This document shows positions 19,576-64,000 of a DNA stretch of 64,000 nt, piece by piece; the first letter of the stretch is position 1, and each line of letters opens with the position of its first letter. The position numbers and the translations under genes were made by a program. Origin of the DNA: a virus; the IMG/VR virus record IMGVR_UViG_3300020579_000009, positions 14,748-78,747 of that record; one strand, given 5' to 3'. The notes under the pieces are model-generated. The model saw only the letters and a program-made list of their open reading frames with translations. It was not told the origin of the DNA and searched no databases.

Positions 19576-20036
19576 TCCGTCTCTCCCGGTGCTGCTTTGC
19601 GCCCCGCTTCCCATTCAGAAAAAGTATCGTTTAGCGCGGGGGTTTCATCCCAGCTGAACTCCACGCTCCACATCGGCCACTTGCCATCATCCTGCATTCC
19701 TTCTACAGAATCATTTGTGCCGAAGTCGCGCAAATATCGCAGGAGTAGTTTGCCGTCGTCTGTAAGCCATGCCCAGCCAATCCCCGTTCCATGCTCGACA
19801 AGCCCCCAGCTATCAAGAACTTTCGCGCCGAACTCTACCCAGGAATCGCGCACGTCTTCTGAATCATTGCCAAGCTGGAACTTGTAGAAGCTGCCGTTTT
19901 TATCGTGATTCTCGGCGCGTTCAAGCAAATGCAGAACGGTTTCCCAGTGGGCATCAGTTCCGCAGCCACACAGCCCCATCTTTTCGATTATCCCGCGCAC
20001 CTTCAAGGCATCAGCCCTATTCCAGTTTTCGCTCAC
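19572..20036 (-). CDS. Hypothetical early protein
   Basis: Likely GTG start at 20036 after GGAGAGG; GLCGCG and EHGTGIGWAWLT motifs. Confidence 0.6.
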   Translation of the reverse strand: MSENWNRADALKVRGIIEKMGLCGCGTDAHWETVLHLLERAENHDKNGSFYKFQLGNDSEDVRDSWVEFGAKVLDSWGLVEHGTGIGWAWLTDDGKLLLRYLRDFGTNDSVEGMQDDGKWPMWSVEFSWDETPALNDTFSEWEAGRKAAPGETE

Positions 20037-20073
20037 AATTCCTCTCCCGGTGCTTTTTGCTGCGCCGCGCGAA

Positions 20074-20223
20074 TCACGGCCTACACTTCCACAGTAGTCG
20101 TGCGAAAAAGTAAGCTGTGCCGCCAACGATAGCGATACCGATAACCCCGGCAAGCGCCACAATCAAAGTGCTCGTAACTCGTATCAGCGTGTCCCGCGCT
20201 CTCTCGCTCGACTCTGTGCTCAT
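20074..20223 (-). CDS. Small membrane protein
   Basis: MSTESSERAR plus a TM helix; N-terminus like 62086..62355. Confidence 0.5.
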   Translation of the reverse strand: MSTESSERARDTLIRVTSTLIVALAGVIGIAIVGGTAYFFARLLWKCRP

Positions 20224-20396
20224 GGTTGCACCTTTTTCCTGCTTCCCCATTCTTCGCCAGGATAGCAGTCCCATCGTCGCTCCCTTCCGCGCTCCTCGTG
20301 CCAAAGCCAGAGAATCAAAAGGGTGTCTCGCCGCACGCAGAGTTCTTAGCCCAAGCCGTGCAACCTGTTAGCGTCACTCCGCGCGAGACACCCATC

Positions 20397-20579
20397 TCAT
20401 TTTCCGACTTGAATCTCATCTTGAATCCTCATGTAAAGTTTGTAACTCAGAAGCACCGCCACGGGTTCATCGCCATCTTGAATCACGAATAGTTCATCGT
20501 CCAATTCTCGCAGCGTATCGGCATTGAAATGGCGCAGCTTTGTTATCCCGACGTGCTTAACGCGCTCGTCTATGTACAT
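20397..20579 (-). CDS. Phd/YefM antitoxin-like small protein
   Basis: VGITKLR...FVIQDGDEPVAVLLSYKLY matches the Phd DNA-binding domain pattern. Confidence 0.55.
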   Translation of the reverse strand: MYIDERVKHVGITKLRHFNADTLRELDDELFVIQDGDEPVAVLLSYKLYMRIQDEIQVGK

Positions 20580-21415
20580 CGTTTCCCTCGCTTGCCTGCT
20601 GGCTCCGTGGCGCTGCGCTCCTGGCTGGCGGCGAGGGGTGCTTTGATGGAATCCAGTCCAGCATCCACGCGTGGATTTGTCCGACAAAGAATGTTCTTGG
20701 CTTCTGGGTGCTCGCTGGCGAATATCGCTTCAAGCCAATCGCTTGCGTGCTGTAACGCCGCTCGCAGTTCCGTGGATTCGCCTGCCGCCGCGACGTTGTT
20801 GCCCCTTCGCCAGCCAAGTGAGTAAGCCTCGGAAGCCGTTAATCCGCAAATGTGCTCACCGTCAACTATTTCCAGTATCGCGCTACAGACCTTGCACACT
20901 ACGGGCGGCGCTGCCTCGGCCCCCGGCTTAACCAGCGTCAGGTCAGGACGAAACTTGCGAGCCTCCTTAGCTGATTCGTTCAGTGGCGTAGTTGGCTCCT
21001 GTTTGCCCTCGACGGGCGGGGCGGCGCTGTCATGGAATACATCAAAGCAACGCGCTCCAACACCGCTCAATGGCATCGGACTTTCCTTTGTTCCCTTGCA
21101 ATGGGGGCAACGGGCTGGCGCTGGCGGCTCCTGTTTGCTGGAGAGAGCGGCGTTCCAGGCTGTTCGAGCTAAGTCTTTGGGCACATGAGATTTTCCATTG
21201 TCCACGATTTTTGCCCACCATTCTTCAAACGTTCGCGTCCCCGGCTCCCGCAGGGCTTCGCGCACGACCCCTTCTAGTTCATCGGCGCAAAGAGTAACCA
21301 TCCATCGAGCGCCGTGTGTCTGCATATCGCTTGTGCCCACACGCACTTTCCCTTCGCGCCACTTCGCAATCAGTTCCCGCAACGTGCGCTCTACATCCAT
21401 TGGCTTGTCGGTCAT
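20570..21415 (-). CDS. Modular mosaic early protein (linker-cassette type), copy 1
   Basis: Shares only linker peptides with 62664..63626. Confidence 0.75.
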   Translation of the reverse strand: MTDKPMDVERTLRELIAKWREGKVRVGTSDMQTHGARWMVTLCADELEGVVREALREPGTRTFEEWWAKIVDNGKSHVPKDLARTAWNAALSSKQEPPAPARCPHCKGTKESPMPLSGVGARCFDVFHDSAAPPVEGKQEPTTPLNESAKEARKFRPDLTLVKPGAEAAPPVVCKVCSAILEIVDGEHICGLTASEAYSLGWRRGNNVAAAGESTELRAALQHASDWLEAIFASEHPEAKNILCRTNPRVDAGLDSIKAPLAASQERSATEPAGKRGKRCT

Positions 21416-21816
21416 GCGATTCCCCTAACTTTGCAACAATCCAGCTTTGGTTTCAGCCGGTCTCCATCTAATTCTCGCGCAATCTGACGGTCGATGCGCT
21501 TCCGTAGGTTGACGTGCGCTCCTGTTGGCCTGTAGCCATTCTGAATCAGGTCGTTGCGCTCCAGTAGCGTGTAGCAGCGATGCGTCCATGAACAATGCCG
21601 AATCGCAAAGAAAACGTGAACGCGACTACGGCCCTGACTCACACGGCGCACGACTCGAAGCGTCCCAGAGCGCGAACGTAGAACGTCTCCAGCCCTGACT
21701 TTCCATATCCAGGAGAATCCGCGCTGTTTGTCGCTCTCCATTTTCATACGCTTTGTGCGCTCAATGTACCAATCGTCGCTCGTGGCTACATCCATTGGCT
21801 CCTCCGATGTCGTCAT
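21412..21816 (-). CDS. Hypothetical basic protein
   Basis: Start MTTSEEPMDV shared with 63623..63838; body unrelated. Confidence 0.6.
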   Translation of the reverse strand: MTTSEEPMDVATSDDWYIERTKRMKMESDKQRGFSWIWKVRAGDVLRSRSGTLRVVRRVSQGRSRVHVFFAIRHCSWTHRCYTLLERNDLIQNGYRPTGAHVNLRKRIDRQIARELDGDRLKPKLDCCKVRGIA

Positions 21817-22337
21817 GGCTGCGATGTCTCCTTCCAAAATGGTATCGGCTTTGCATCCTTCGGCAGATAGAGCGGATGACGCGGCGAGCCATCTTTGTTC
21901 CTGCCAAAACATTTGAAGTCCGTCCGCAGAATTTGTGAAAACTTTACGATTACTTTCTCATCCCGCTTTAGATAATGGCCGTGCTTTCCCCACGCCGCGA
22001 TGATGATTCCAGCTTCTCTAGCCGAATCCTCAATCCATGTATCGTTGTCTGGGCCTATCGGGTCTTTCGCTGCCATCATCTCTTTGGGATTGGTCGCCCG
22101 AAACGCAAACAGATTCGTCATGCACAACGCTCCGTAGCCCCACGCATTAGCGAAGCCTACGCAGCGACGAATCGTAGGGTCGTCTTGGATTTCATCAGCG
22201 GTAGACGGGTTCAGCCCCACAAACATCGCATAGGCTCGCTTGCGCCCGAATCCTTGACGCTCCTCTCCGTCAAGCATCGGCCAGTCGCGCCAAAGCGTAT
22301 AGCGATAAACTCTATCCTCGCTGAGAATTGCGCTCAC
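21813..22337 (-). CDS. DUF1643 family protein
   Basis: FVGLNPSTAD...DDPTIRRC...NLFAFRAT...AAWG...PRHPLY. Confidence 0.85.
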   Translation of the reverse strand: MSAILSEDRVYRYTLWRDWPMLDGEERQGFGRKRAYAMFVGLNPSTADEIQDDPTIRRCVGFANAWGYGALCMTNLFAFRATNPKEMMAAKDPIGPDNDTWIEDSAREAGIIIAAWGKHGHYLKRDEKVIVKFSQILRTDFKCFGRNKDGSPRHPLYLPKDAKPIPFWKETSQP

Positions 22338-22565
22338 CCTCTGCTCCCCGCTCTCACTTTGAACCTTTAGCTGGATTGCACCAGCAAACAGCTATGGCAT
22401 GAGTATCGTCAAGGTTTAGAACGTGATTTTTGCTTTCACAGCTTGGGCAATAAGGAATAGAAGTTCCTTCCCTTGCTTCCAACTCTCCCCCGCATTCGCG
22501 ACAATGCAATTTAATTGTTCTCCGTTCCATTGTTCTGCTCCCCGCTCTCTTGGTAGTAGGATGGG

Positions 22566-22826
22566 TCACGGGCGTAGCCTCACTTCTTTTTTGCCGCGCG
22601 TCGTGCGCTGGACTTGCGTGATTGACTCGTAGACGATAAACTTTTTCTCAGCAGAATCTTCTTCTGCGAAGTGAACAGTGTCTCCGTTGAGGAAAAACTG
22701 GCCTCTGCCGATACCACGCTCATCAACAGGGATTTGCCTCATCACTTCGCTGCAAGGCATGCCCTTGCGATAAATCAGCACTCGCGCAACCATGCCGATA
22801 GTCGGTTTAGTCCGTCGCTCGCTCAT
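22566..22826 (-). CDS. Hypothetical protein
   Basis: Likely start MSERRTKP with ATGA coupling. Confidence 0.5.
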   Translation of the reverse strand: MSERRTKPTIGMVARVLIYRKGMPCSEVMRQIPVDERGIGRGQFFLNGDTVHFAEEDSAEKKFIVYESITQVQRTTRGKKEVRLRP

Positions 22827-23257
22827 TTCTGTCTCCCACGCGGTTTGCGCTTGGTGCTGGGCTTCGCGCCTAAAGTCCCCGCCTGTGCATCTCTTGCTGC
22901 TCGCGCCATACAACATAAAATCATTTCCCGGTAGAACATCGGAGGCGTCCCCTTGTGTCCTTCTCCTGCTTCGCCGTGCATGCAAGGAAGCTCTCGGAGC
23001 GTTTCCCCTATCTCGAATATGATTCCTTCGCCCATGTCCTTGTTGACCTTCTCGCACCATTGTTTCTCCGCAAATTCTTCCAACTTCGCCAGCACAGTCC
23101 CATGCGCCAAGTCTGCCTTGAGCTGATTCTTGCCTTGCTCCACCTGTATCGCCGTCAGCTTCGTCTCCAGCGCATTAATCCCTGCCAGCAACTTGCCTTG
23201 CGATTCGGCCACGCTCTTCAGCAATACCGCATGCGTCTTGTGCCATTCCTCGCTCAT
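22823..23257 (-). CDS. Hypothetical coiled-coil protein
   Basis: Likely start MSEEWHK overlapping the upstream stop. Confidence 0.55.
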   Translation of the reverse strand: MSEEWHKTHAVLLKSVAESQGKLLAGINALETKLTAIQVEQGKNQLKADLAHGTVLAKLEEFAEKQWCEKVNKDMGEGIIFEIGETLRELPCMHGEAGEGHKGTPPMFYREMILCCMARAARDAQAGTLGAKPSTKRKPRGRQK

Positions 23258-23430
23258 TGTTGCTTCGCCTGCCGTGATTCCAGCTCGCCAATCGGTATCT
23301 GCCACTTGCGGCCTAGCTTCTTTGCCGGGAGTTTGCCCAGATAGATTTGCTGATAGATGTGATTCAGCGACATCCCCGTTGCTCTGGCGAAAGCGTAGAC
23401 GCCCACGTATCCATTGCTATTCTTCGACAT
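23254..23430 (-). CDS. Xis/MerR-like winged HTH, copy 2 (58 aa, not in ORF track)
   Basis: Translated by hand: MSKNSNGYVGVYAFARATGMSLNHIYQQIYLGKLPAKKLGRKWQIP; paralog of 19194..19361. Confidence 0.75.
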   Translation of the reverse strand: MSKNSNGYVGVYAFARATGMSLNHIYQQIYLGKLPAKKLGRKWQIPIGELESRQAKQQ

Positions 23431-23435
23431 CTATT

Positions 23436-23915
23436 TTATCCCCTTGTACTCAATCCCTCTCGAATGTTCGCTGTGTGGTGGATGAATCGCTTTGCGGCTC
23501 CGCCAGTCTTTGGACGGCTGTTGTCCTCCCGCGTGTCTTTGCCGCGATAGGTTCCAAGACGCCCAGACTTCGGCATGGCTTTGAGTTTGTAATCGCCCGG
23601 CTCGAACGATGCGCCACGGTCAAAGGAAACTACTTCCTTGCTGACCGCTTCGGGAACCTTGTAGCGCGTGGCATGCGTTCCTTTGATGACGTAAGCGATC
23701 GAAGCGGAGATGATGACACTCGCTGCGCTCTCTTGCCGCTTCACCGCCGTTGCCATCGCGCATTCCCCGTGATTCTTCTTGACGCTTGTTTTGTAGTCCT
23801 TCTCCGTGACGTTGACGAGCAAATCGTCGTCCGCATCCGTAACTGTTTTAACTTTCGGCGCGAACTTCTGAACCACGCCAAGAGCTACTCGGCCAATCCT
23901 GTTGCGATTCTTCAT
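23436..23915 (-). CDS. Hypothetical protein (TDADD family, copy 2)
   Basis: Paralog of 18242..18721. Confidence 0.75.
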   Translation of the reverse strand: MKNRNRIGRVALGVVQKFAPKVKTVTDADDDLLVNVTEKDYKTSVKKNHGECAMATAVKRQESAASVIISASIAYVIKGTHATRYKVPEAVSKEVVSFDRGASFEPGDYKLKAMPKSGRLGTYRGKDTREDNSRPKTGGAAKRFIHHTANIREGLSTRG

Positions 23916-23939
23916 GTAGCGCCCCCCTTATGAGGGCTG

Positions 23940-24066
23940 GCATACTTCTACTACTACTCGGCCAAACCTGTCAAGGACATAAAGTGTCACTTTAGCGATT
24001 ATCCACAGACACTTTTTGGCTGGTACTTTCGTACTATTGCATAGCCTGTTTTGGTAGTAGTAGTAT
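23940..24066. promoter_or_regulatory. Divergent promoter pair
   Basis: Minus TTGACA at 23974-23969 and plus TTGCAT-18nt-TAGTAT from 24037; both -10 regions overlap GTAGTAGTAG. Confidence 0.55.
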
Positions 24067-24086
24067 GTTGCCAGCGGGAGGCGCAC

Positions 24087-24305
24087 ATGGACGGATTGGA
24101 CTTCATGGCAATCAGTGCTTGGGAACTCGACGAGGAACAGGGCATGCGCGGGTGGCTCTTGTGGCTCAAACAGGCCGAAAAGCTCATGCACAAGCGCACT
24201 CTCGACGGCTGCGAGGATGAGGACGGCTATTCGCTGGACTCCGCGCACGATGCTTTTGAGGCAGAAATCTCACCCGAAGATTACGCAGCAGGGAAACGAG
24301 CCTAG
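24087..24305 (+). CDS. Small acidic hypothetical protein
   Basis: SD GGGAGG; LDGCEDEDGYSLD. Confidence 0.6.
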   Translation: MDGLDFMAISAWELDEEQGMRGWLLWLKQAEKLMHKRTLDGCEDEDGYSLDSAHDAFEAEISPEDYAAGKRA

Positions 24306-24339
24306 TTCGCAGCCCCCTGCACTAGAAAGAGGAGCCGAA

Positions 24340-24624
24340 ATGAAACACTTTCCAGAGAAAATCTACGATATGCGCGGCAACAACAATGGCTTGTATCGCG
24401 TCGCTGTGGTCTGGTGCGCGGTTTGCCGCCAGCAATGGGGCGAAGGCTCTTGGCTAGAGGGCATGAAGGGCTACGACAAGGCCCACCAACCCACCTTCTC
24501 CGAGGGTATGACCCGCTTGAATTCCGTGCTAAAGCGTGTCGCTGAGGCCGCCGTGCCGGATACCGAGCGCGAGGATTACAAAGCCTATGAGCGGTGGCGC
24601 GAAGATAGGGCGGTGCGCGGATGA
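24340..24624 (+). CDS. Hypothetical protein
   Basis: SD AGGAG before MKHFPEK. Confidence 0.55.
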   Translation: MKHFPEKIYDMRGNNNGLYRVAVVWCAVCRQQWGEGSWLEGMKGYDKAHQPTFSEGMTRLNSVLKRVAEAAVPDTEREDYKAYERWREDRAVRG

Positions 24625-25019
24625 TTCACTCCATCCCTTGCCCTGATTGCTCGAAGCGCATGGATTCGTTCCTCTGGTGCGAGCGATGCCTTGGAAGCGG
24701 ACGTATCGCGCTTATCGCCAAGCCCCAGCCCAGCGGGAAAGCCCTGCTACGCGCGGCGGGGATATGGTTTGGCTTTTTTCTGCTTGGTATTTTGCTGGTG
24801 CTGCGGCAGTTGAGGTTGCTCTAATGGACGCCTTCTTTCAAGCGCATGAAGCGTGGATTCTAGTTTTCATAATCGCTGGCAGCGTCAAGTTCGTCTTTGA
24901 CGTATTCGACGTGATGAAGTGGTGGAGCAAAGAATGACCAGCGCGGAAGTGACCTGGAAATCCATCGGCAAGTTCCTGCTCGCGGTCTTGGGGGCTTTGG
25001 CCTATGTCTACGGTCTGCT

Positions 25020-25394
25020 GTGGCTGCGGGGGCTGGGCCAGTGAAAAAGCTCTGCCTGTTATGCAAGAAGCGTTTCTCTGATGGCCTTTTCTGCGCTCAT
25101 TGCACGTTTGAGAAACACATGAAGTCTATGAATCTCACTATCGAACCGGAATTTCTTTTTCACCCGCAACGCAAGTGGCGATGGGACTACATCCTTTCCG
25201 GTCATAGAATCGCCGTGGAAATTCAGGGCCAGATTTGGCACAAAGGCGGTCACACGTCCGGCAAGGGAATGCAGCGCGATATGGACAAGAGAAATGCCGG
25301 AGTCATGCTGGGCTGGCGCGTGCTTACGTTTTCGACTGACGATGTAATCAGAGGCCGCGCAAAAGCGTTTATCTACGAACATCTCTTCACCTAA
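25020..25394 (+). CDS. PD-(D/E)XK endonuclease (DUF559/Vsr-like)
   Basis: EFLFHPQRKWRWDY...AVEIQG...H...RDMDKRN...GWRVL. Confidence 0.75.
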   Translation: MAAGAGPVKKLCLLCKKRFSDGLFCAHCTFEKHMKSMNLTIEPEFLFHPQRKWRWDYILSGHRIAVEIQGQIWHKGGHTSGKGMQRDMDKRNAGVMLGWRVLTFSTDDVIRGRAKAFIYEHLFT

Positions 25395-25407
25395 AAGGAG
25401 CTTTTCA

Positions 25408-26226
25408 ATGGCAAATGAGCAACTGGAAATCCCTAGCGAGAAGCACCGCTTCAGCAACACAAAAGAAGTGCGAGACGAAATCAAGGCTCTTGCCGCGAAT
25501 GGCGAGACGAAAGAGCTTCCTAAGCTGAACCTGCTGCAAAAGCTCGCTGCCATCGTTGCGGAAATCGACAACGTGGACAAGCGCGGGCGCAACGAGTTCC
25601 AAAAATATGCATATGTCAAGGCCACGGATGTCGCTTGGCTTGTCAGGAAAGCCCTGTCCAGCCGGAATATCTACCTGGTGGCCGACGTGGTGGAAGTGCG
25701 GAACTACGAAATCCCTGCTAGGGAAGGCTCCATGCAAGCCGTGGACGTGAAGATGCAGTTCAGCTTCTTTGATGGCGATGTGGTGGATGGCATGCCCGTT
25801 GTGCTCCATGCCTTCGGTACGGGCACCGACAAAGGCGACAAGGCCATCTACAAGGCCATGACCGGCGCTTTGAAGTATGGGCTTCGCCATGCTTTCCTCA
25901 TCCCAGATGAGTCTGACCCCGAAGGCGATGCCAGCGTGGACAAGCTGACCGCCAATGCCAAGAAAGTCGGCGAAGAGAAGGCCAAAGCCATCAAGGAAGG
26001 CAAGAATCCACCTGTCCTTAGCCTCTTCTACATCTGGAACGATGAGAACCAGACGGCTGAGATTGTGGGGGCCGAAGAGCTGAAAACGGCCAACAAGGAC
26101 ATCCTCAAGCAGTTCTGGAGCAATGCGGCAAAGGCCATCATCGTCACCGGTGAGCAGTTGGAAGGGCTGAAGTACCAGTTTGAGCAGCGGGAAGTGCCGT
26201 TTAGCCCATTGAAGGCGAAGGCATGA
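25408..26226 (+). CDS. erf: ERF-family single-strand annealing protein
   Basis: KRGRNEFQKYAY...GTDKGDKAIYKAMTGALKY..F.IP..DPE. Confidence 0.85.
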   Translation: MANEQLEIPSEKHRFSNTKEVRDEIKALAANGETKELPKLNLLQKLAAIVAEIDNVDKRGRNEFQKYAYVKATDVAWLVRKALSSRNIYLVADVVEVRNYEIPAREGSMQAVDVKMQFSFFDGDVVDGMPVVLHAFGTGTDKGDKAIYKAMTGALKYGLRHAFLIPDESDPEGDASVDKLTANAKKVGEEKAKAIKEGKNPPVLSLFYIWNDENQTAEIVGAEELKTANKDILKQFWSNAAKAIIVTGEQLEGLKYQFEQREVPFSPLKAKA

Positions 26227-26368
26227 GATTGCATGGCCAAAGTGTGACGAGCTATAGAGGCAGGAACAACCTCCGGCAATGGCGTAGCAAGAGTGATGAG
26301 CGGGCAGGCATGCCCGTAGCTTCACAAATTGGATGGGAAGTCACACCCTTAGCGCGGGTTCCTGTCCA

Positions 26369-26677
26369 ATGAAATTCTCTGAACTCAAAGCGAACTGGGC
26401 GTGGTTTCTGGAGCATATGCCGGACGATGAGCCTTGCTCGTTCCCGCGCAGAGAGGTCAAGCGCAGAATCGCCAACAAAGAGAAACGGAGCAGGGTTTCC
26501 TTTGCCTGCGACCCGGATACCTACTCCGAGTTCCACCGGGAGCGGGAACGCATCATGCGCGTGCTCGATGAAAACCCCACGCTGTTCGGCCTGTTTATGA
26601 TTAAGTGCTTGGGCCATTGGGATGACATCGACATCGCAGAGTGGAAGAAAGAGCAGGAAGGGCCAGATGAAAGCTGA
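26369..26677 (+). CDS. Hypothetical protein
   Basis: ORF in plus-strand operon. Confidence 0.5.
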   Translation: MKFSELKANWAWFLEHMPDDEPCSFPRREVKRRIANKEKRSRVSFACDPDTYSEFHRERERIMRVLDENPTLFGLFMIKCLGHWDDIDIAEWKKEQEGPDES

Positions 26678-27234: not shown

Positions 27235-27235
27235 A

Positions 27236-27778: not shown

Positions 27779-27919
27779 GGGGCGCGGATTTTGCTTGCAA
27801 AGGGAGCGAAAAAAGCTCTTGTAGAGAAAGGAGTTTTGCTCTTGCGCGGCCCCCGGAGCGGTGAGGGGGGAGCCAGCGTTTCGCTATTTCTTCTACCGTA
27901 AAATAGTTTGAGAATTAGC

Positions 27920-29493: not shown

Positions 29494-30237
29494 ATGCTCA
29501 TGGCGAACACAAAAGTAGGACTTGCGTACCGCAGCACTCGGCGGAATTGGGTAAAACTGTGGACGCATGAATGGTTGCGCGGCACTTCGCGGTTTGAGTT
29601 GAATCCAGCGCAGCGGAGCGCGTTTGTGGACTTACTGGCGATGGCCGGAGACTCAAAAGTACCGGGGAAGGTCTGCGCTGGAATTGATGTTGATGGGTCG
29701 ATTCTCGGCTTTCCGCTGGATTACATTGCTGGCGTTCTGACGATGGATAAGCCGTATCTCAGGGACACGCTATTCCTTCTTGAAAAGCAGGGAAGAATTG
29801 AGACTTCACTGGACGCCAGAGGTAACTCGATTATCACTCTCACAAGCTGGGTGAAATATCAGTCGGAGTATCATCGCCAGAAAAGTTACAGGTCAAACTC
29901 CGATGAGGTGACAGGCAAAGTTACAAGTGAAACTCCTGCGAAGTTACCAGTAGAGGGAGAAGTAGAGGTAGATGGAGAAATAGAAGAAGAAACATCTTTT
30001 GGTGTGTTTTGGGATTTGTATCCTCGCAAAGTCGGAAAGGCAAAGGCAACTGTCCTGTGGAAGAAACTAAGCTCTAGACCGGAGCTTCAAAAGAACGCCT
30101 TGCATGGGCTGAAACTTTGGAAACAATCCGAGCAATGGAACCGCGACGACGGAAAGTACATCCCGTACTGTTCTACTTTTCTGGCGCGAGAGCAATGGGC
30201 CGATGAGCCGTGGACTGGAGCTTTTGAAGGGCGCTAG
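29494..30237 (+). CDS. Replication initiator / replisome-organizer-like protein
   Basis: N-terminal WVKLW wHTH with I.LTSWVKYQ, acidic linker, C-terminal FWDLYPRKVGK..YIPY.STFL; upstream TTGACA promoter at 29462. Confidence 0.75.
   Translation: MLMANTKVGLAYRSTRRNWVKLWTHEWLRGTSRFELNPAQRSAFVDLLAMAGDSKVPGKVCAGIDVDGSILGFPLDYIAGVLTMDKPYLRDTLFLLEKQGRIETSLDARGNSIITLTSWVKYQSEYHRQKSYRSNSDEVTGKVTSETPAKLPVEGEVEVDGEIEEETSFGVFWDLYPRKVGKAKATVLWKKLSSRPELQKNALHGLKLWKQSEQWNRDDGKYIPYCSTFLAREQWADEPWTGAFEGR
29883..29951 (+). repeat. Iteron-like direct repeats inside the initiator gene
   Basis: AAGTTACAGGTCAAACTCC (29883), AAGTTACAAGTGAAACTCC (29918), partial AAGTTACCAGT (29941). Confidence 0.55.
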
Positions 30238-30345
30238 GCGCTGCGGGAAGGTTGGCGCGGCGCGGGCCAGAAGTGAGGTGAGCGCAGATTTAGCTTGTAA
30301 CGGGCCAAGCATGTAAGTACGATTCGCGCAGCAAAGGAGAAAAGC

Positions 30346-30995: not shown

Positions 30996-30998
30996 GTT

Positions 30999-56772: not shown

Positions 56773-56805
56773 ACTTGAACCTCGATTCGATTGGAAATTC
56801 CACGG

Positions 56806-56997
56806 CTAACCTCCTGTAAACCTTTGATGCACCCGGTTGTTTACTTCAAGCGTCTCAATCAGTTTTGTTTCCTTCAAGATTCTTCCCGTCAGATGGCAGG
56901 TTGGAACGGTGGGGCCGTAGGCAATCGGCGGCGCGTTCTGGATTTCTTTTAGCTCCTCGGCAACCTGCCTTACCAGTTCAGGTGTTGGCATCGGCAA
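56806..56997 (-). CDS. Small hypothetical protein
   Basis: Counterpart of 10324..10539, mostly lacking the Cys residues. Confidence 0.5.
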   Translation of the reverse strand: MPMPTPELVRQVAEELKEIQNAPPIAYGPTVPTCHLTGRILKETKLIETLEVNNRVHQRFTGG

Positions 56998-57643
56998 TTT
57001 CTCCTACAATCTTTCTGCCTTCCTTCACGGAAGGATTCTCCAAATCGTTCAGGATGTCCTGCACGCGCATGCGTTCGAGCAAATCATCATCCCGCCACTG
57101 AGCGCAGACCGCTCCATTCTCTATTGTCGTTTGCAGCACACGGCAAAAACCTTTGGGCTCCAGGCGCTTATCGTTGCCTTCCGTCATGTAGTGGTCGCAA
57201 TCATCGCCGCCGTTTTCTCCGCCGCAGCTTGCCCCGCCGATATCCTGTCCCACTTCCGGGGCGTTAATCCAGATGAGTCCTAATAGTTCCGGGTCGTTGG
57301 CTGCCGTGAACATTTCCGGCCCGTAGTTCGGCTCGCCTCTGTCCCACATCGAGCAGCACGGCCAGTACTCAATGGGCTTGGCGTCGGCTGTTTCCCGTAC
57401 TGGGTAAGTGAATTTCTTTACTTTCGTCCACGGGCCGATGAGCATGCAGGACTTCCCGTAGTTGAAGAAATGGCAGTTGTAGCAGGTGGCAGGCTCTCCG
57501 CCCATCGATGCGGACGGCACAAACATGACTTCGCCCTTGCTGGGAGTAGGAACGGTATAGATATCGGGGCGAGACCCGGCGCGGCGCTGGGCGTTAATCT
57601 TTTTCAGCGTCTCCGCCGTGTAGACGAGAAATCCTTTGCTCAC
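56978..57643 (-). CDS. Cys-rich tandem HiPIP-like protein, module B
   Basis: CYNCHFF..C..WPCC..CGGENGGDDCDHY..GFC..CAQW. Confidence 0.7.
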   Translation of the reverse strand: MSKGFLVYTAETLKKINAQRRAGSRPDIYTVPTPSKGEVMFVPSASMGGEPATCYNCHFFNYGKSCMLIGPWTKVKKFTYPVRETADAKPIEYWPCCSMWDRGEPNYGPEMFTAANDPELLGLIWINAPEVGQDIGGASCGGENGGDDCDHYMTEGNDKRLEPKGFCRVLQTTIENGAVCAQWRDDDLLERMRVQDILNDLENPSVKEGRKIVGEIADANT

Positions 57644-57758
57644 TTGTCCTTCATCTTCACCTTGAGTTTAATGCTCTTGAGCTTGCCAGCGGTCGCGGCT
57701 TTCTTGGCCACGTCCACGACAGGCTTCATCATGGAAGTTGAGTTTGCCATAGATTCTC

Positions 57759-58016
57759 CTAAGTAGCGAAGGCCATGCCGTTCGCGTAGTCGCCGCGATT
57801 CAAGTCCTCGGCATAGGTTCTGGTAAGCGTCGCCCCGGTCGCCCCGCCATTCACCGTGGTATTGAAGCTGGTGAAGTCGGCTGCGGGAATGACCACGGCA
57901 AACCGCAAGTCAGCGTTGGGATTCAATCCATCGTTAGTGGAATAAAAATCGAGGCGCACGTTGCCGCTAGCCATTTTTAGAGCGACGACGGAAACACCTG
58001 GGATATTTACGGCCAT
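57759..58016 (-). CDS. Small putative structural protein
   Basis: Start MAVNIPG with SD AAGGAG; ASGNVRL resembles ASGACRL of 3965..4204. Confidence 0.55.
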   Translation of the reverse strand: MAVNIPGVSVVALKMASGNVRLDFYSTNDGLNPNADLRFAVVIPAADFTSFNTTVNGGATGATLTRTYAEDLNRGDYANGMAFAT

Positions 58017-58017
58017 A

Positions 58018-58275
58018 CTAAACTCCTTTGATAATCGGTGAGGTAGCTGCGGCGGCTTTAGCCTGCTCGGCTTTTCGTTCGAGCAGGGCTCCAACCGCTT
58101 CCATGAGTTCGCTGTCCTTGAGGATGCCTTTGGCTACGAGGATTTCTTCGAGTGCTTCTATCGCTACGGCGGTGGAGCCGACATTCGTTACCAGGCGCTC
58201 TTCCATCGCGGAGACTTCGCCGCGCGAGATGGGCTCGCGCATGACTTCTCTCCACTTGGCTTGGCCCGTCAGCAT
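58018..58275 (-). CDS. Helical hypothetical protein
   Basis: Packed ORF. Confidence 0.55.
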   Translation of the reverse strand: MLTGQAKWREVMREPISRGEVSAMEERLVTNVGSTAVAIEALEEILVAKGILKDSELMEAVGALLERKAEQAKAAAATSPIIKGV

Positions 58276-58661
58276 CAGGAAGCCAGTTGGCTCTTGAGCG
58301 ATTCCGCCGTCGCGGTCTTGGCAGCGAGTATCGCATCGGCGGCAGCTTTATCGGCAGAGGCTTTCATGTCTGCTGCTCTTGCGGTTGCAGCGGCTTGCGC
58401 GGCATCGGAAACTTTCTTCGCCGTGTCGGCGCGGTCTTGCGCTGCTTTAGCCTCGGCCTGCGCGGCAAGAGCCGCAGCTTGGGCGCGGGCAAGAGACTCC
58501 TTTGCGGCAGCGTCGGCGGCAGCGGCAGCTTCAGCGGCAAGAGCGGAAGCGGGCTTCGGGTCGGCGTAGAGACGTTCTAATTCGTCGCACATCGCAACTA
58601 CATCGGCGGGAGTAGCCAGTCCTTTATGAACGCGGGCGGAAATGTCAGAGAGATTGAGCAT
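58275..58661 (-). CDS. Ala-rich coiled-coil protein
   Basis: SD AGGAGG; A/K/D-rich helix. Confidence 0.6.
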   Translation of the reverse strand: MLNLSDISARVHKGLATPADVVAMCDELERLYADPKPASALAAEAAAAADAAAKESLARAQAAALAAQAEAKAAQDRADTAKKVSDAAQAAATARAADMKASADKAAADAILAAKTATAESLKSQLAS

Positions 58662-58670
58662 GAAATCCTC

Positions 58671-60161
58671 CTACGGGCGAGACGATACCACATTCGGCCT
58701 TTGAAAACGAGAGAATCTCGGTCGCTGATACTTTTTCTGCGTGGGAACGCCTTCTCCTTCCCGCTTATGTTTGTCGGCTTCATACCAGTAGAGCCGGGAA
58801 GTTTCATCGAGCGCGGGATTTTGCCAGGGCTTCGCGGCGGCTATTTTCTCCGGTTCAGGGCGGAAGGTATGGATGGCATAGCGAATAGCGGAAGGGCAGT
58901 GAGAATTTTCGTGCGCTGGCTCAAACTTAGGATTCCCGCTACGGTCTTTGGCCCATTTGTAGGCTGGAACTTCACGGAGAGTGTTTCGACACCGCGAAGA
59001 GACAAAGTATCGAGGGCTGCCAGCAACGCTGGGATTAAATGGGTGGGACAATCGAGGGTCAACGTGCATGTACTGCTCGGTTTTGAATAACCCCGGTGTG
59101 ACTTCCTTGATGGCGGGCTGGCCGAAGATGCCGTGCTCTTCGAGTTCGAGCGCGGCAGCTCTCTGTGCATAGTCATAAGCGATTCCTTCTATCGGGTGGA
59201 GCCCGATTTTGGTGTGGAGTTCCTCGCTGATGGGCTTGATTCGGAGTCCTGAACCGTAAACTTCATCGAACTGGTAGAGCCGCCCGTCAGGAGCAACTGC
59301 GATAATCGGGATGGCCCACGGGTCGCCATCTTCTCCTCCGCCGATGTCCATGCCCACGATGACCGGCCAGTCGTTCGGAGGGTTAGGTTCGCCTCCAAAG
59401 ATGTCGTAGTGCTTGGTATCGTCCCAGACATGGGTGATTTCCGAGAATTCCTTGAACACCAGGTCGCTGAAGTCGGCAAAAGAGCCGTGAATAAAGCGGT
59501 CTGCCCAATCGGGAGGGTAGGTATTGAGCATGTTTTCGATGGTTTCAGCGGGCAAAAACACGTTGTCCATGCTGGACATGGTGATTCCGAGGTTCGCTTG
59601 AAGTGCTTTTTTCCGGTTGGGGTCGAAAAAGTGTCTCCAGACCCAATCGTGGCCCGCTGGGTTCGATGCCAGCCTTATAATTCTTCGCGGAGCGGTCTTT
59701 CGGCGCACTCCGCCCAAGATTACGAAGTAAATCTCCTCGCTAATCTCCACAGCCTCATCGATAAAGGCCGCAGAGAGGTTCATGCTCTTGATATGCCCGA
59801 CAACTTTGGGGTCGGTGATGTCCAGATGCTTGAAAATCGTCTGATGGCCGTTGCGCCACTGGAAAATCTTCTTCGATTCCTCCCATTTGCCCCATCCTTC
59901 CTCGACCAGCTCCAGAAATATCTGCATGGTGCTCGTCTCAAGGGCGGGCATGTTCAATCGGCCAATGAGAGAGACACCATTCGGGTCGGCATTGGCAAAC
60001 GTGATGGCCGAAGCGCAAAGAACTACGCTCTTTCCCGACCCACGGCCACCGACGATGGCCCCCATGCGGTTATCGGAGGCTAGGAACTGGTATTGTTTGG
60101 GAGCTTTGGGCAGGTTCTCGATGAAAGTTTTGAAGTCGAGTTCGCCGGTGCGAATGCCCAT
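58671..60161 (-). CDS. terL: Terminase large subunit, module B (third nuclease Asp replaced by Ser)
   Basis: PKQ adenine motif, GGRGSGKS, AFIDEA, SNP, GMDIG, YDYA, HCPSAIRY. Confidence 0.9.
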   Translation of the reverse strand: MGIRTGELDFKTFIENLPKAPKQYQFLASDNRMGAIVGGRGSGKSVVLCASAITFANADPNGVSLIGRLNMPALETSTMQIFLELVEEGWGKWEESKKIFQWRNGHQTIFKHLDITDPKVVGHIKSMNLSAAFIDEAVEISEEIYFVILGGVRRKTAPRRIIRLASNPAGHDWVWRHFFDPNRKKALQANLGITMSSMDNVFLPAETIENMLNTYPPDWADRFIHGSFADFSDLVFKEFSEITHVWDDTKHYDIFGGEPNPPNDWPVIVGMDIGGGEDGDPWAIPIIAVAPDGRLYQFDEVYGSGLRIKPISEELHTKIGLHPIEGIAYDYAQRAAALELEEHGIFGQPAIKEVTPGLFKTEQYMHVDPRLSHPFNPSVAGSPRYFVSSRCRNTLREVPAYKWAKDRSGNPKFEPAHENSHCPSAIRYAIHTFRPEPEKIAAAKPWQNPALDETSRLYWYEADKHKREGEGVPTQKKYQRPRFSRFQRPNVVSSRP

Positions 60162-60173
60162 GCGCGAAGTCTA

Positions 60174-60323
60174 TCAGGTTTTCAGCCACACCAGGAACCT
60201 TACTATTCTCGAATCCCAATCGACGGGCTGAACGTTCCAGACAAAACCTAGGAGCGCCGCAAATATCCATGCTCCGCAAGAACAGAGCAAAACGACCAGA
60301 AAAATCTTCCATAGAAAGCTCAT
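60174..60323 (-). CDS. Small membrane protein
   Basis: MSFLWKIFLVVLL; ATGA coupling. Confidence 0.5.
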   Translation of the reverse strand: MSFLWKIFLVVLLCSCGAWIFAALLGFVWNVQPVDWDSRIVRFLVWLKT

Positions 60324-60730
60324 ATCCCACCATGCTTTGCTGTGAACCGAATACCATAGGCATTGCCAGCGCCGAGGTAGAGCCTCGGCAAACGCTCCAG
60401 CTTGTGATGGCCTGTCCTGTGGAGCAAGAACGAAAGCCCCTCCCCTGCTCCGTAGAAGGCAAGCTGAAATCCCACCATCCCGGCGCAACTCTGAGTGGGC
60501 AGGTTCATCTCACGCTGGCCCCTAGCCAGGAAGCGGCAGGTAATTGCTGAGTCCGTCGCGGCCAAAGTCCCTGCTGCGGCTAGTTCCAGTTTGGCGAAGC
60601 GGTCGTAGAACTGGTGGGGGTTTTGGCTCGCGCCGGGCAACCCCCCGCTGCCCTTGAACGTGTTAGTACGCTCCACGCCAAGATTTGGCACAGCCGAGCA
60701 TAGCAAACACCAAAGCAAAAGTCCGCTCAT
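60320..60730 (-). CDS. Secreted/membrane hypothetical protein
   Basis: C-terminal ~85 aa almost identical to 13406..13930. Confidence 0.65.
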   Translation of the reverse strand: MSGLLLWCLLCSAVPNLGVERTNTFKGSGGLPGASQNPHQFYDRFAKLELAAAGTLAATDSAITCRFLARGQREMNLPTQSCAGMVGFQLAFYGAGEGLSFLLHRTGHHKLERLPRLYLGAGNAYGIRFTAKHGGI

Positions 60731-61080
60731 TCGATTATCGCCATCCCTCCGCATTGCCAGCAGCGGTAGCCTTTCTGCGTTCCATGCTTGCAGTACTTTC
60801 CTTTGGCTCGCTTCGTAGGTTTATCCGCCAATACGGGAGCAGCCGATACCCCGCGTCCATGAACCTCTTCCACTCCAACGGTATTAGCCCGCCGTTCAGC
60901 CACACGTACTCGCTCAGGCCGTGGCAACTCCGAATCTGTCTCCAGTTCTCCAAGTAGTGTCTCCCTTGCCCATTCCACTACCGTGCGCCCTTCACTCCGC
61001 GCTTTCTCTGTCAGCCGCGTCAGGTCGCTAGCTTCCACGTAAACCACCAACCGCGTCCGTTCCGTAAACAGCTTCCTCAT
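60727..61080 (-). CDS. RHH-like DNA-binding protein with Cys/His knuckle
   Basis: Paralog of 13927..14289. Confidence 0.55.
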   Translation of the reverse strand: MRKLFTERTRLVVYVEASDLTRLTEKARSEGRTVVEWARETLLGELETDSELPRPERVRVAERRANTVGVEEVHGRGVSAAPVLADKPTKRAKGKYCKHGTQKGYRCWQCGGMAIIE

Positions 61081-61205
61081 CGCACATATGTTTTACATTA
61101 TCGGGCACATGTGTGTCAAGAGAATTCGCAAAAGTTGGGAGGGATTCTGTAAATCTAAATAGCCATACCGGGGGTTTTTGGCTGCTTGGGTCTGGTTCTA
61201 GTTAG

Positions 61206-61320
61206 GTACTGGTAGTTTTGGTGCGTCCCATAAGACTTATTGTGTTAACTAGGACATGATGATACTAAAGGACTTAGCTTATAGTTGCACAATAATGGTG
61301 CAGTGTGACGCTATTTGTCT
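61206..61320. repeat. Conserved non-coding block, copy 2
   Basis: Matches 14403..14517. Confidence 0.9.
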
Positions 61321-61802
61321 TCCGGTGCGGCGTTAACTTCGATGACTGGCTGAGTGGTATCTGCTTGAGTCTGCGGGCCTTGCTGCTTGAACATGATGTT
61401 TATGGCTTGGCTGAGATGGATTTGCTCGGGGCCAGGGCTGTTTTTTGCGTTTTCGCCGATTACTCCCATGTCATTCAAGAACTTACGGCCTAGCTCGCCA
61501 TCGCCCTTTTTAAGCTGAGTTCCTATGGCCGTGATTGCTTCAGGAATCAGCGTGGCACAGGTAAATCTGCCCACTTCCATCTGTCGGTCAATGTCCGATT
61601 CCTCTGCAATTGCCTTGGCTGTGTTTACAGCGATTTTTAAGTCCTTTGCTATGTGCGCCCAAGGCTTACCATTGGCTCTGCTGAGGATAACAGCAGTCTT
61701 AATCGCTGGGGCTTTCCTTGATTTGCTGGTTTTGATGGCTGTGACGGGCTGAGAATCACTTGGTGAGGCATCTGGAGCGAGGGTCTGAGTTGCGGTGCTC
61801 AC
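61311..61802 (-). CDS. Putative terminase small subunit (HTH), module B
   Basis: GTG start at 61802 (MSTATQ, cf. MSTDS) 7 nt after TTGACC-17nt-GATAAT; SRKAPAIK..RANG..IAKDLKIAVNT; ends IEVNAAPEDK. Confidence 0.55.
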   Translation of the reverse strand: MSTATQTLAPDASPSDSQPVTAIKTSKSRKAPAIKTAVILSRANGKPWAHIAKDLKIAVNTAKAIAEESDIDRQMEVGRFTCATLIPEAITAIGTQLKKGDGELGRKFLNDMGVIGENAKNSPGPEQIHLSQAINIMFKQQGPQTQADTTQPVIEVNAAPEDK

Positions 61803-61834
61803 AGGAGGGATTATCTGCTTTGCGCTGCGGGAGG

Positions 61835-62089
61835 TCAAGCCTTTTCTGCCGGGAAGCAAACAGGGCATTTAGGGCTGCCGTACCATGCTCCGCCACACTT
61901 CGGACAATCGCCACCATCCACGTATTGCTGCGTAGCCTGTTCTCCCGGTGCTGCTTTGCGCCCCGCACTCGTTGCCAGCAGAAAGAAAATCGCTACGAAT
62001 AGAGCCGAGAGCATTTTCTCCAAGGTATTTCTGGCCGTCATGCAAGCCATCGCCACACAAAATGAAGCTATAAAACCAAGTGTTCTCAC
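61835..62089 (-). CDS. Small membrane/zinc-finger early protein
   Basis: GTG start after GGAGAGG; internal GRKAAPGE linker; CPKC..CPVC. Confidence 0.5.
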   Translation of the reverse strand: MRTLGFIASFCVAMACMTARNTLEKMLSALFVAIFFLLATSAGRKAAPGEQATQQYVDGGDCPKCGGAWYGSPKCPVCFPAEKA

Positions 62090-62355
62090 GTTCCCTCTCC
62101 CGGTGCTTTTTGCTGCGCCGCGCGCTCTGCTGTGATTCTTAGCGCTAGCCAACGCTCAAAATTTGCTTGCCCTGTTCCCAATACCCTTCTAGCTTCGATT
62201 AGGCCGTCCAGCCTAGCGGCGCTGGCATAACGGGTCAGCAGGTCGGCCAGTTCAGTTACGGTATTAGACATGTAGGTTTCGTGGTGGAATCGGTTGTCTT
62301 GGCGAATCAGCCACTCTCGAGCAACCTGACGCGCTCTCTCGCTCGGCTCACTCAT
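62086..62355 (-). CDS. Hypothetical early protein
   Basis: MSEPSERAR...RAAQQKAPGE linker ends. Confidence 0.6.
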   Translation of the reverse strand: MSEPSERARQVAREWLIRQDNRFHHETYMSNTVTELADLLTRYASAARLDGLIEARRVLGTGQANFERWLALRITAERAAQQKAPGEGT

Positions 62356-62382
62356 TTGTAGCCCCTTCCCCAGCTAGGCGGG

Positions 62383-62667
62383 TCATGGGCGCGACTCCGG
62401 CCAAACGGTTTCGCGGGCTTCATGCGAGCCTAGGCCGCGTTCAAGCAAATAGGTATAATCCTGTAACTTGCTGCACTCATGTTCCGCCATACAAACCTTG
62501 TGCGCTAATTCCAATTGTCCCATGCCGAGTAAGTCGATAGTTTTTATCAGCCGTCTAAGCGTTTTCCGTTCAATCGATATTGAACAATGCTCGACTCGCT
62601 CATCGTCCAAGCAGAACTCTTTTGCCAAAGAATCTAATTCCGGTTGACGCATCGTTTCCTCTATCAT
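62383..62667 (-). CDS. Hypothetical early protein
   Basis: SD GGAGG; occupies the slot held by the Phd-like gene in the other copy. Confidence 0.55.
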   Translation of the reverse strand: MIEETMRQPELDSLAKEFCLDDERVEHCSISIERKTLRRLIKTIDLLGMGQLELAHKVCMAEHECSKLQDYTYLLERGLGSHEARETVWPESRP

Positions 62668-63626
62668 TTCTCCTCCGTGGCGCTGCGCTCCTGGCTGGCG
62701 GCGAGGGCCTTGTCGAGAGCCTTGATGCACAAGCTTAGGGCATCGCGGTAGCCGTCACCATAAGACTCCCTATCTTCGGCGTGTACTCCAAATCGCGGGT
62801 GTTGGCGCAACTCCTTGACGGTCTGCTGTATTCGCGTTCGCAGTTCCGTGGATTCGCCTGCCGCCGCGCGGGGTTCTGCATCATCCAATCGGCTCAATGT
62901 TTGCGCTAAGAAACGCTTCTCGCCGTTGGCTATTACAAATTTATCGCCTACTTCCTTTGGCAGCCCGTTGCGCGTGGGCGGCGCTGCCTCGGCCCCCGGC
63001 TCCTGTTTGCCCTCGACGGGCGGGGCGGCTACAAAGCGTTCATGCTCACGGTCTTGTAGGGCAGACCATTGCTGTTTCATGCTGAGGTACATATCTCGAA
63101 GCGTTTCGATGGCCTCAACGCTAGTCTTGGCTTCAATGTTCAACTCTTCGCAAATATCAGATATTTCGCCAAGCTGCTCTTGAAAACTTTCTCTCAGCAT
63201 TATCTCGCGCTCAAGTCGAGAACCGGCTGGCGCTGGCGGCTCCTGTTTGCTGGCGCGTCCCGCTGGCGTGCAGAATGAATACACAAAGCTGCACAGTTCC
63301 GCTTCGATGATGTCTATTACGGTTTCGCTTCTGCCACAAAACTCATCGCCAATCCTCTTCGCCAATTTCTGTATCTCGGGATGCACCTGCTCCACACTCA
63401 TCGCCCCCGGCTCCCGCAGGGCTTCGAGGTTTACGCAAGCGACAAACAACTCCATTGAAGCTCTCGACTTTTCTCCTGCATATTCGTATTTGAAAAGGAA
63501 TTTACCTTCGCCATCCGTAACTGTAGGCCAGCCGTGATTATCATCACTCAGCGTCCACGGCCTAGGCGCTGCCCTCTCGCTTAGCTCCCGTAACGTGCGC
63601 TCTACATCCATTGGCTTGTCGGTCAT
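62664..63626 (-). CDS. Modular mosaic early protein, copy 2 (Ea22/Ead-like N-terminal cassette)
   Basis: LRELSERAAPRPW resembles the Ead/Ea22 N-terminus; linkers shared with 20570..21415. Confidence 0.7.
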   Translation of the reverse strand: MTDKPMDVERTLRELSERAAPRPWTLSDDNHGWPTVTDGEGKFLFKYEYAGEKSRASMELFVACVNLEALREPGAMSVEQVHPEIQKLAKRIGDEFCGRSETVIDIIEAELCSFVYSFCTPAGRASKQEPPAPAGSRLEREIMLRESFQEQLGEISDICEELNIEAKTSVEAIETLRDMYLSMKQQWSALQDREHERFVAAPPVEGKQEPGAEAAPPTRNGLPKEVGDKFVIANGEKRFLAQTLSRLDDAEPRAAAGESTELRTRIQQTVKELRQHPRFGVHAEDRESYGDGYRDALSLCIKALDKALAASQERSATEEK

Positions 63627-63838
63627 GGCCGAACCCCAAGTTCTCTTTGGGCTACTTCGAGAGAAACGACAATCTCCTCATTCCAGCGCCCGTAATGGTC
63701 GAAATGTTGGCCTTCGTGCCCCTCGCGGCGAACGCAGCTAAAAGTGTGACAGCCGTATTCAAGCGTTCTGCCATCGCGCGTGCTCCATGTCGCTTTACAT
63801 TGCTTGCTCACATCCATTGGCTCCTCCGATGTCGTCAT
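63623..63838 (-). CDS. Small Cys/His early protein
   Basis: MTTSEEPMDV start; CVRREGHEGQH. Confidence 0.55.
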   Translation of the reverse strand: MTTSEEPMDVSKQCKATWSTRDGRTLEYGCHTFSCVRREGHEGQHFDHYGRWNEEIVVSLEVAQRELGVRP

Positions 63839-64000
63839 GGCGCTTGCCGCCGTACTCGAATCCAACCATAGTCACGATAGATTTGCTCATGCGCCCGACA
63901 GACTTTCACTTTGTGCTTATGTGTCACGCGGCCCCACAGCCAAATTCTACCGGGAGTCTTGCCGCCGCAATCACGGAACGGGCACATAATGACTCTCTTC

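Follow-up and report, generated by a model that had tools for sequence, protein, structure and literature searches.

Ordered cassettes between invariant, position-specific linkers in an accessory operon of uncultivated soil phages

It is an old and unsettled question whether phage mosaicism arises via special conserved linkers or via random illegitimate joining followed by selection. A locus that bears on this question lies in IMG/VR virus record IMGVR_UViG_3300020579_000009, a single contig of 78,747 nt, of which we analyzed bases 14748-78747 (the window, 64,000 nt; positions below refer to it unless stated otherwise). Two parts of this window, region A at 19.3-22 kb and region B at 61.8-64 kb, are connected by a series of short, exactly identical sequences, here called linkers L1 to L10, and the question that the locus raises is how these linkers have remained identical while the DNA between them has not. 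We describe the anatomy of the two regions, the invariance of the linkers at the nucleotide level, and the reassortment among natural relatives of the cassettes that they frame, with breakpoints at the linkers.

Exact linkers in two phage genomes

All ten A/B pairs in the initial annotation are exact and colinear (10/10; Table 1), and a k=16 search of the window recovers them independently together with two more colinear matches. In total, 12 exact matches of at least 16 nt connect the two regions, 10 of them being at least 22 nt long, while the chance expectation for matches of at least 16 nt is a mean of 0.007 in first-order Markov shuffles. The initial annotation was also right that the DNA between the linkers is dissimilar. 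Sensitive blastn of region A against region B returns the linkers and one 63% stretch (20577-20928), which is itself carried by three linkers, and blastp of the cassette peptides of A and B gives no match to each other. The inter-linker DNA of A and B is essentially unalignable.

The two regions had been taken to belong to one genome, and this view is probably wrong. The contig contains two diverged, colinear phage genomes, A and B, whose structural proteins are 25-59% identical, in agreement with the deep divergence of core structural genes noted at the outset; the identity of TerL to that of any cultured phage is at most 27%. A 127-nt block at contig bases 1-127 recurs exactly, 44,882 nt away, at contig bases 44883-45009 (window 30136-30262), and in the probable source run the depth is 32-43 for A-type pieces and 15-19 for several linker-to-linker joints that fit the spacing of B. 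Because of the 127-nt repeat and the difference in depth, we read the A-B tandem as an assembly join: phage A is probably a circular genome of ~44.9 kb, and phage B is probably a partial genome that the assembler joined to it via the shared 127-mer. The two regions therefore probably come from two co-occurring phages and not from a single molecule. The array lies on the minus strand, with a divergent region near 24 kb upstream and the terS/terL genes downstream, a layout that is the same in the related locus L001. A blastn search of 19300-22400 against GenBank phages gave no relevant match, and the lineage is one of uncultivated soil phages.

Seven of the linkers (L3-L9) lie in frame inside one minus-strand open reading frame (ORF) in both phages. 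This mosaic ORF is the single open frame, the other five frames containing 2-11 stops in A and 4-19 in B. The linker peptides, which are given in Table 1 from L9 to L3, form Ala/Pro/Glu/Gln-rich connectors, and the modules between them are 0-64 aa long and unrelated between A and B. Slot 4 is occupied in A and empty in B, and because it is empty L6 of B overlaps L5 by 4 nt. The initial annotation had placed a ribosome-binding site plus a gene start or end in several linkers, which is accurate for L1, L2, L9, and L10 only.

These junction linkers follow a common pattern. L10 and L9 both have ATGA stop/start overlaps and encode related N-termini, with 13 nt in common. L1, L2, and a third copy in A each consist of a tail ending in APGE, then the Shine-Dalgarno (SD) sequence GGGAGA, then the next start. 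In A, L1 combines a C-terminal tail with an SD and the ATG of the gene that follows, while in B it is read in frame as a connector that leads to a CxxC tail; L2 encodes the C-terminal tail of 62086..62355 in B, while in A it falls in another reading frame or is intergenic. Since the roles of L1 and L2 differ between A and B, the same linker DNA can be either a junction or a connector. L3 of B likewise continues into an SD (GGAGGAG) and then into ATGA, where the following gene starts, and a further junction, GKRGKR followed by ATG, is present in A and in the related loci L002 and L003.

Table 1. Linkers, array genes, and other features, in window coordinates
Feature	Phage A	Phage B	Strand	Description
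L10	21788..21819	63810..63841	-	ATGA overlap with DUF1643 gene, plus start MTTSEEPMDV of single-cassette gene
L9	21381..21416	63592..63627	-	ATGA stop/start overlap plus mosaic-ORF N-terminus MTDKPMDVERT; linker peptide MTDKPMDVERTLREL
L8	21239..21260	63405..63426	-	In-frame EALREPG; 22/22 identical in L001
L7	21113..21141	63225..63253	-	In-frame SKQEPPAPA; identical 29/29 in L003, 28/29 in L001
L6	20994..21025	62998..63029	-	In-frame AAPPVEGKQEP; 32/32 identical in L002
L5	20903..20928	62976..63001	-	In-frame (P)GAEAAPP; 26/26 identical in L001
L4	20762..20792	62838..62868	-	In-frame AAAGESTELR; 21-nt core identical in 5 DNAs
L3	20603..20637	62673..62707	-	In-frame LAASQERSATE close to ORF end; exact in X3 and X4 contigs
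L2	20041..20071	62094..62124	-	AAQQKAPGE tail plus SD GGGAGAGG, then GTG start
L1	19582..19607	61941..61966	-	AGRKAAPGE
Unlisted 16-nt exact match	20195-20210	62330-62345	-	N-terminal (P/S)SERAR of small genes starting MS(T)E.SERAR
Unlisted 16-nt exact match	19395-19410	61939-61954	-	Third AAPGE-junction copy in A; end of last array gene
Mosaic ORF, P0001	20570..21415		-	281 aa; start linker, then six slots split by in-frame L8, L7, L6, L5, L4, L3
Mosaic ORF, P0002		62664..63626	-	320 aa; linkers and order as in A, other cassettes, slot 4 empty
Single-cassette gene	21412..21816		-	Between L10 and L9, start MTTSEEPMDV; 1 difference/433 nt in run X2
Single-cassette gene		63623..63838	-	Between L10 and L9; unrelated to the gene of A
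Small gene	20397..20579		-	Directly after mosaic ORF, past GKRGKR/ATG junction; weak Phd/YefM antitoxin match, E 1.8e-4, under Pfam cut-off
Small gene	20074..20223		-	Hydrophobic, putative membrane-spanning stretch; start MSTESSERAR
Cassette gene	19572..20036		-	Between L2 and L1
Last array gene, CxxC-type	19387..19575		-	C-terminal AAPGERA
Gene after L3		62383..62667	-	Fused to slot 1 in natural variant P0015
Gene		62086..62355	-	MSEPSERAR to AAQQKAPGEGT tail (L2)
Gene with L1 in frame		61835..62089	-	
Erf-like single-strand annealing protein gene	25408..26226		+	phrog_155 E 1.4e-20; phrog_2324 1.3e-6

No family was found for the mosaic protein in Pfam, PHROGs, PDB sequences, or the ESM Atlas. 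Its AlphaFold model is weak (predicted local distance difference test, pLDDT, 55.6), with cassettes predicted as helices or a small sheet, and the low-confidence stretches at residues 71-74, 118-135, and 200-258 coincide with L8, L7, and L6/L5/L4, respectively. The connector peptides resemble classical Ala/Pro-rich inter-domain linkers. From its sequence, we read the mosaic ORF as a putative beads-on-a-string fusion of unrelated autonomous modules. An identity as Ea22 was considered and rejected, there being no PF13935 match, no PDB match, and an Atlas template modeling (TM) score of just 0.21-0.28.

Constancy at the protein level alone would leave synonymous positions free, and here the nucleotide-level comparisons, which rest on A, B, L001, L002, L003, and Logan contigs, are informative. 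Linker cores are invariant in 3-5 independent DNAs, with variation limited to the last edge base, and the flanks of the linkers become unrelated within a codon in A, B, and L001-L003. Free variation of the linkers at synonymous sites in relatives, which would have told against the initial interpretation, is thus not seen. Between A and B, 64/64 degenerate codons in the in-frame linkers are identical, compared with 47.6% at identical residues in five conserved gene pairs (TerL, portal-like, capsid-like, terS-like, and one more; P ~2e-21). The linkers are also distinct in composition, at 74% GC with a third-position GC (GC3) of 0.81, versus 51-54% GC and GC3 of 0.52-0.54 in the cassettes. None of the linkers folds better than shuffles (z -1.9 to +2.0). 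As single strands, L3 and L4 (window 20598-20642 and 20757-20797) fold clearly worse than shuffles, with z of +2.0 and +1.9.

Parts of region A are found in seven soil-metagenome runs from five studies. When contigs of runs X3 and X4 are aligned to A, they match it at linkers alone, with 0 mismatches, and are unlike A on either side; one such contig has 127 other letters between L3 and L4. In run X2, some cassettes of A are 100% identical, neighboring genes are 95-99.8% identical, and linkers are exact; the changes relative to A fall at linkers. Other slots have little or no cover in this run, and the uncovered parts of A in X2-X4 are no evidence of absence; the apparent joints there are mostly colinear linkers whose filling is not seen and are not proven deletions. 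Each listed linker occurs once per phage genome, and a separate 16-mer junction, described below, has two copies in A.

Reassortment of cassettes among natural relatives

An important question is whether the cassettes have moved, or have simply diverged in place. We collected relatives by a word-based search together with a profile search of 1.84 billion (1.84e9) representative proteins. This gave 19 proteins with linkers in total, 18 of them from the profile search, and the order of the linkers is identical in all. The 80 cassettes parsed from these 19 proteins, which are 0-131 aa long, fall into 63 families, of which 52 are singletons. Scans with degenerate patterns found one viral and two metagenome loci and none in prokaryote genomes, and exact linker scans of IMG/VR gave L001 as the only relevant match. 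A 20-nt exact match to the L6 core (VEGKQEP) at 2608-2627 of L004 falls within a portal gene, that of an unrelated phage in IMG/VR, and we regard it as a chance match.

Cassettes that are reused always occupy the same slot and have different neighbors. P0006 combines slot 2 of B (88%) with slot 3 of A (83%) and slots 5 and 6 of P0012 (100% and 97%), and slot 3 of P0012 is in turn common to P0007. The sole cassette that P0018 shares with A is slot 5, at 100% identity, while P0005 has slot 1 in common with B and another cassette in common with P0008. Since the alternatives in a slot are non-homologous and the same cassettes are reused in the same slot, exchange is required at L8, L7, L6/L5, and L4. 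The fixed slots, the exchange, and its resolution below the level of the gene, all proposed in the initial annotation, are thus seen directly in the relatives, with slot-specific reuse and changed neighbors. The accompanying statement that the intervening segments show no similarity is mostly correct, given 63 families among 80 cassettes. It fails for a minority that are diverged homologs inside a slot: in slot 1, the members of one family are 38-56% identical, and in slot 2, A and L001 are 48% identical.

Some relatives carry joins between different linkers: EALREPG to AEAAPP in P0013 and P0016, SKQEP to GAEAAPP in P0019, and MTTSEEPMDVER in L001 and P0018. In P0015, an out-of-frame join of L8 to L3 has fused slot 1 with the gene that follows. 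The joins make use of the longest stretches of microhomology between linkers, which are 13 nt for L9/L10, 13 nt for L6/L7, and 8 nt for L5/L8.

The slot-1 cassette of P0008, at 131 aa, matches free-standing proteins and aligns without gaps, at 73% identity, to residues 3-116 of a 118-aa example. As this match to a free-standing 118-aa protein shows, small genes can be taken up in their entirety and in frame. For slots 1 and 2 of B, the only free-standing homolog is P0015. The free-standing family related to P0008 residues 24-137 (P0043 and relatives) is very widespread and highly conserved, with members of ~118-190 aa and more than 1,700 matches at ~70-87% identity. Its records include some from Sphingomonas, Massilia, Roseiarcus, and Roseibium; no Pfam family covers it, and NTP pyrophosphatase is the label used by some sources. 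One cassette of P0010 (residues ~226-256) contains an HExxH motif, and its SprT-like match is weak (E 0.24).

Probable exchange between genomes and competing explanations

Taken together, these observations make it likely, in our judgment, that the operon is an ordered cassette array with position-specific, GC-rich linkers of ~21-36 nt, in which slots are swapped by homologous recombination between relatives. The accessory operon consists of ordered cassettes, either mini-domains or small whole genes, between linkers. As a linker is unique within a genome and shared across genomes, recombination would swap the cassette of a single slot, with co-infecting relatives or resident prophages as partners. 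Position-specific linkers would keep both order and reading frame, and the shorter microhomologies between different linkers would give rise to slot deletions, duplications, and gene fusions.

The Erf-like gene of phage A, whose presence was correctly predicted (phrog_155 E 1.4e-20), offers a candidate enzyme. Erf/Red-type Rad52-like annealases recombine short, diverged homologies far better than RecA (PMC3945230, PMC2327257), and the phage annealase probably catalyzes the exchange. The low self-structure of the linkers would favor strand annealing. In the reading that we prefer, the linkers are kept identical by exchange that recurs and by selection acting on the new combinations. Cassettes may include small enzymes, and we expect each of them to work as a binding or enzymatic module of its own, directed at variable host targets; a role of the mosaic protein against host defenses is speculation.

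The exchange described in the initial annotation stands, and its description as a system was overstated, as no dedicated machinery is found. There are no silent donor copies, each linker being single per phage genome, and no common core among the linkers. No promoter-like site or minus-strand terminator is present in 19000-24700, and no integrase, invertase, reverse transcriptase, or IntI-type tyrosine recombinase occurs among the scanned neighbors, many of whose small ORFs are unannotated. In view of the lack of a donor library, a common core, a hairpin, or a recombinase, we favor general homologous recombination between genomes.

Several points weigh against exchange by homologous recombination at the linkers. 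The evidence is all comparative, recombination events not having been directly observed, and efficient recombination usually takes homology as long as, or longer than, these 22-36 nt, which may keep rates low. It is also not obvious how exchange by itself would account for the identity of the linkers at every synonymous site. The junction linkers likely have a nucleotide-level function (SD, translational coupling), and such a function is possible for the in-frame linkers as well. In addition, some cassettes within a slot are diverged homologs (slots 1 and 2, as above), and weak shared motifs occur at cassette edges next to linkers (..AALS-SKQEPP, STE-LRAAL), which means that part of the variability is ordinary divergence. 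Finally, the mosaic protein lacks a match in Pfam, PHROG, or PDB that could support a function.

A stronger form of the proposal is that the array is an evolved exchange platform, in which linker identity is kept by selection for evolvability and unstructured GC-rich handles capture small genes in frame. The product would be a combinatorial multi-effector protein, perhaps processed at its connectors, with modules re-dealt among co-infecting phages versus variable host defenses. We regard this as possible and rather doubtful; if true, the platform would be a recombination-based counterpart of the integron inside one reading frame.

Two simpler explanations are each improbable in our estimate and have some evidence in their favor. 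The first is that linkers are kept for a nucleotide or translation job, such as ribosome binding, stop/start coupling, or internal SD-like pausing, with recombination as a by-product. An SD and stop/start overlap do lie a few bases before starts at L1, L2, L9, L10, the extension of L3, and the GKRGKR junction, AGGAG or GGGAG occurs within several of the in-frame linkers, and L2 is retained in A although the reading frame there differs. However, an SD requires ~6 nt, not 22-36 exact nt, and L4-L8 have no start codon downstream. The array is without a promoter or minus-strand terminator and has no hairpin above shuffles. A role at the level of translation also leaves the slot-specific reassortment unexplained, so that exchange would be needed anyway.

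The second explanation, to which we give a similarly small chance, holds that the linkers are passive remnants of a recent spread from one ancestor, that is, the unreplaced rest after cassettes were replaced singly by illegitimate recombination. In line with this, the codon at which the insertion starts shifts within the long block AAPPVEGKQEPGAEAAPP, lying after EP in A, after EPGA in L001 and L002, and after EPGAE in P0005, and the whole-gene capture in P0008 must have begun as a non-homologous event. Yet sharp edges recur across many independent combinations and samples, and identical cassettes in the same slot with different neighbors need exchange between existing arrays. The shared cassettes of run X2 diverge variably (0 to 5%) while its linkers are exact, and the rest of the genomes is at saturation.

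It is very unlikely that the array encodes a protein scaffold with hypervariable loops in the style of the gp38 adhesin, in which conserved peptides are a structural core and the segments diversify on a common fold. The linker peptides are invariant, in fixed order, and in one ORF, and this is formally like the layout of glycine-rich motifs and hypervariable segments (GRM/HVS) of gp38 (PMC3157838). The cassettes, however, are 0-131 aa long with their own predicted secondary structure, and one is a complete free-standing protein; the natural variants P0013, P0016, and P0019 are without several slots and linkers; and the linkers are predicted as coil or with low confidence. Selection at the protein level also cannot account for the 64/64 identical synonymous sites.

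Dedicated programmed variation, whether integron-like, shufflon-like, like a diversity-generating retroelement, or by gene conversion from silent cassettes, has a superficial likeness to the array in its ordered cassettes between short conserved sites, but we hold it to be extremely improbable: there is neither a donor library nor any of the enzymes named above among the scanned neighbors, the linkers differ from one another and form no attC-type hairpins beyond shuffles, and the cassettes are unrelated and not mutated copies. A mosaic pattern made by chimeric contigs is scarcely credible either, for although this contig probably does combine two phages in a chimera and Logan unitigs break at every linker of at least 31 nt, differently filled linkers recur in separate assemblies from several studies and sources, ORFs are intact through all combinations, and the linkers are far shorter than the 127-nt overlap (the assembler word size), so that neighboring cassettes were probably joined by words that span them.

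Recombination at the linkers has the advantage that it can be put to experiment. The array is a compact natural test bed of ~2 kb in which about a dozen linkers are defined and alternative cassettes are known; the same genome also has an Erf gene, and this combination makes linker-dependent exchange directly measurable. Synonymous recoding of the linkers can separate DNA-level from protein-level constraint.

Neighboring genes and comparison with known systems

Directly upstream of the array lies a DUF1643 (PF07799) gene (21813-22337, minus strand), which overlaps the L10 start by ATGA and is ~95% identical to run X2. The 16-mer GAGAGCGGGGAGCAGA (coding orientation) occurs twice in A, at window 22340-22355 and 22534-22549, as an SD-bearing junction upstream of the listed array; its copies stand a few bases before the start of the DUF1643 gene at 22337 and that of a small CxxC protein at 22531. 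Position 22355 is also where contigs of X1 and X2 break. On the other side, an A-specific insert of ~4.4 kb (window 14964-19386) separates the array from the homolog of 61311..61868 of B. It contains an AAA_5 ATPase gene (16479..17348, minus strand), next to which lies a 412-aa ORF that matches no family. Two further genes of the insert, on the plus strand, have inverted paralogs across the array: 18188..18721 is 39% identical to 23436..23915, and 19161..19361 is 55% identical to 23254..23430.

The array shows that shuffling below the gene level can work in a non-structural protein, into which whole genes can also be absorbed in frame. This is relevant to the annotation of phage ORFans and to the reading of fused multi-domain accessory proteins. 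It matters as well for the assembly of phage metagenomes, since such linkers tangle graphs and can join different genomes.

The closest conceptual precedent is the modular theory of phage evolution, which Susskind and Botstein reportedly set out in 1978 with linker or boundary sequences; short conserved boundary sequences are said to have been described in lambdoid phages by Juhala (2000) and Clark (2001). As in that theory, short conserved DNA flanked by unrelated DNA marks module exchange here, and natural recombinants have their junctions at linkers. A location at gene boundaries, with an SD and a start or stop, applies to 4/10 linkers (L1, L2, L9, and L10) and to the GKRGKR junction. The difference is that seven linkers are translated inside one ORF, with L4-L8 wholly internal, that they are position-specific and exact over 22-36 nt across samples, and that the resolution is that of mini-domains of 0-131 aa instead of genes or gene blocks.

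Within a single ORF, the nearest parallel is the GRM/HVS organization of gp38 and the swapping of motifs in T-even tail fibers (PMC3157838), where strictly ordered motifs and a restricted palette per variable position are reshuffled between relatives. In gp38 the motifs form one structural core, and all motifs and segments tested by deletion are essential (PMC3157838), whereas here slots and linkers are dispensable in natural variants and the cassettes are apparently autonomous folds, one of them a whole gene. The mosaic protein is also not a virion adhesin, with no Pfam, PHROG, or PDB match to gp38 or a tail-fiber adhesin.

The PeSLs of T4-type phages, which combine a promoter and a stem-loop, are intergenic and present in many copies per genome (PMC2839356, PMC4122927). 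They are similar in being short conserved elements between small accessory ORFs that mediate gene insertion, deletion, and replacement, whereas the linkers here are without promoter, terminator, or hairpin, are single per genome, and are mostly coding. Another variable, multi-part accessory protein in a non-structural phage operon is found in the lambda exo-xis/Ea22 region (PMC7093339, PMC10834534), to which the mosaic protein has no sequence relation, as described above. The relaxed recombination by Red-beta, RecT, and Erf (PMC2327257, PMC3945230) is the model for the exchange proposed here, by short homology in co-infection or with prophages and with the Erf-like gene of phage A, although the annealase experiments used homologies of hundreds of bases (PMC2327257, PMC3945230) as opposed to islands of 22-36 nt. 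The array differs from the boundary sequences of the modular theory, the PeSLs, and the gp38 design in that its linkers are mostly coding, unique per genome, position-specific, and exact across samples, and operate at the scale of mini-domains in a non-structural protein.

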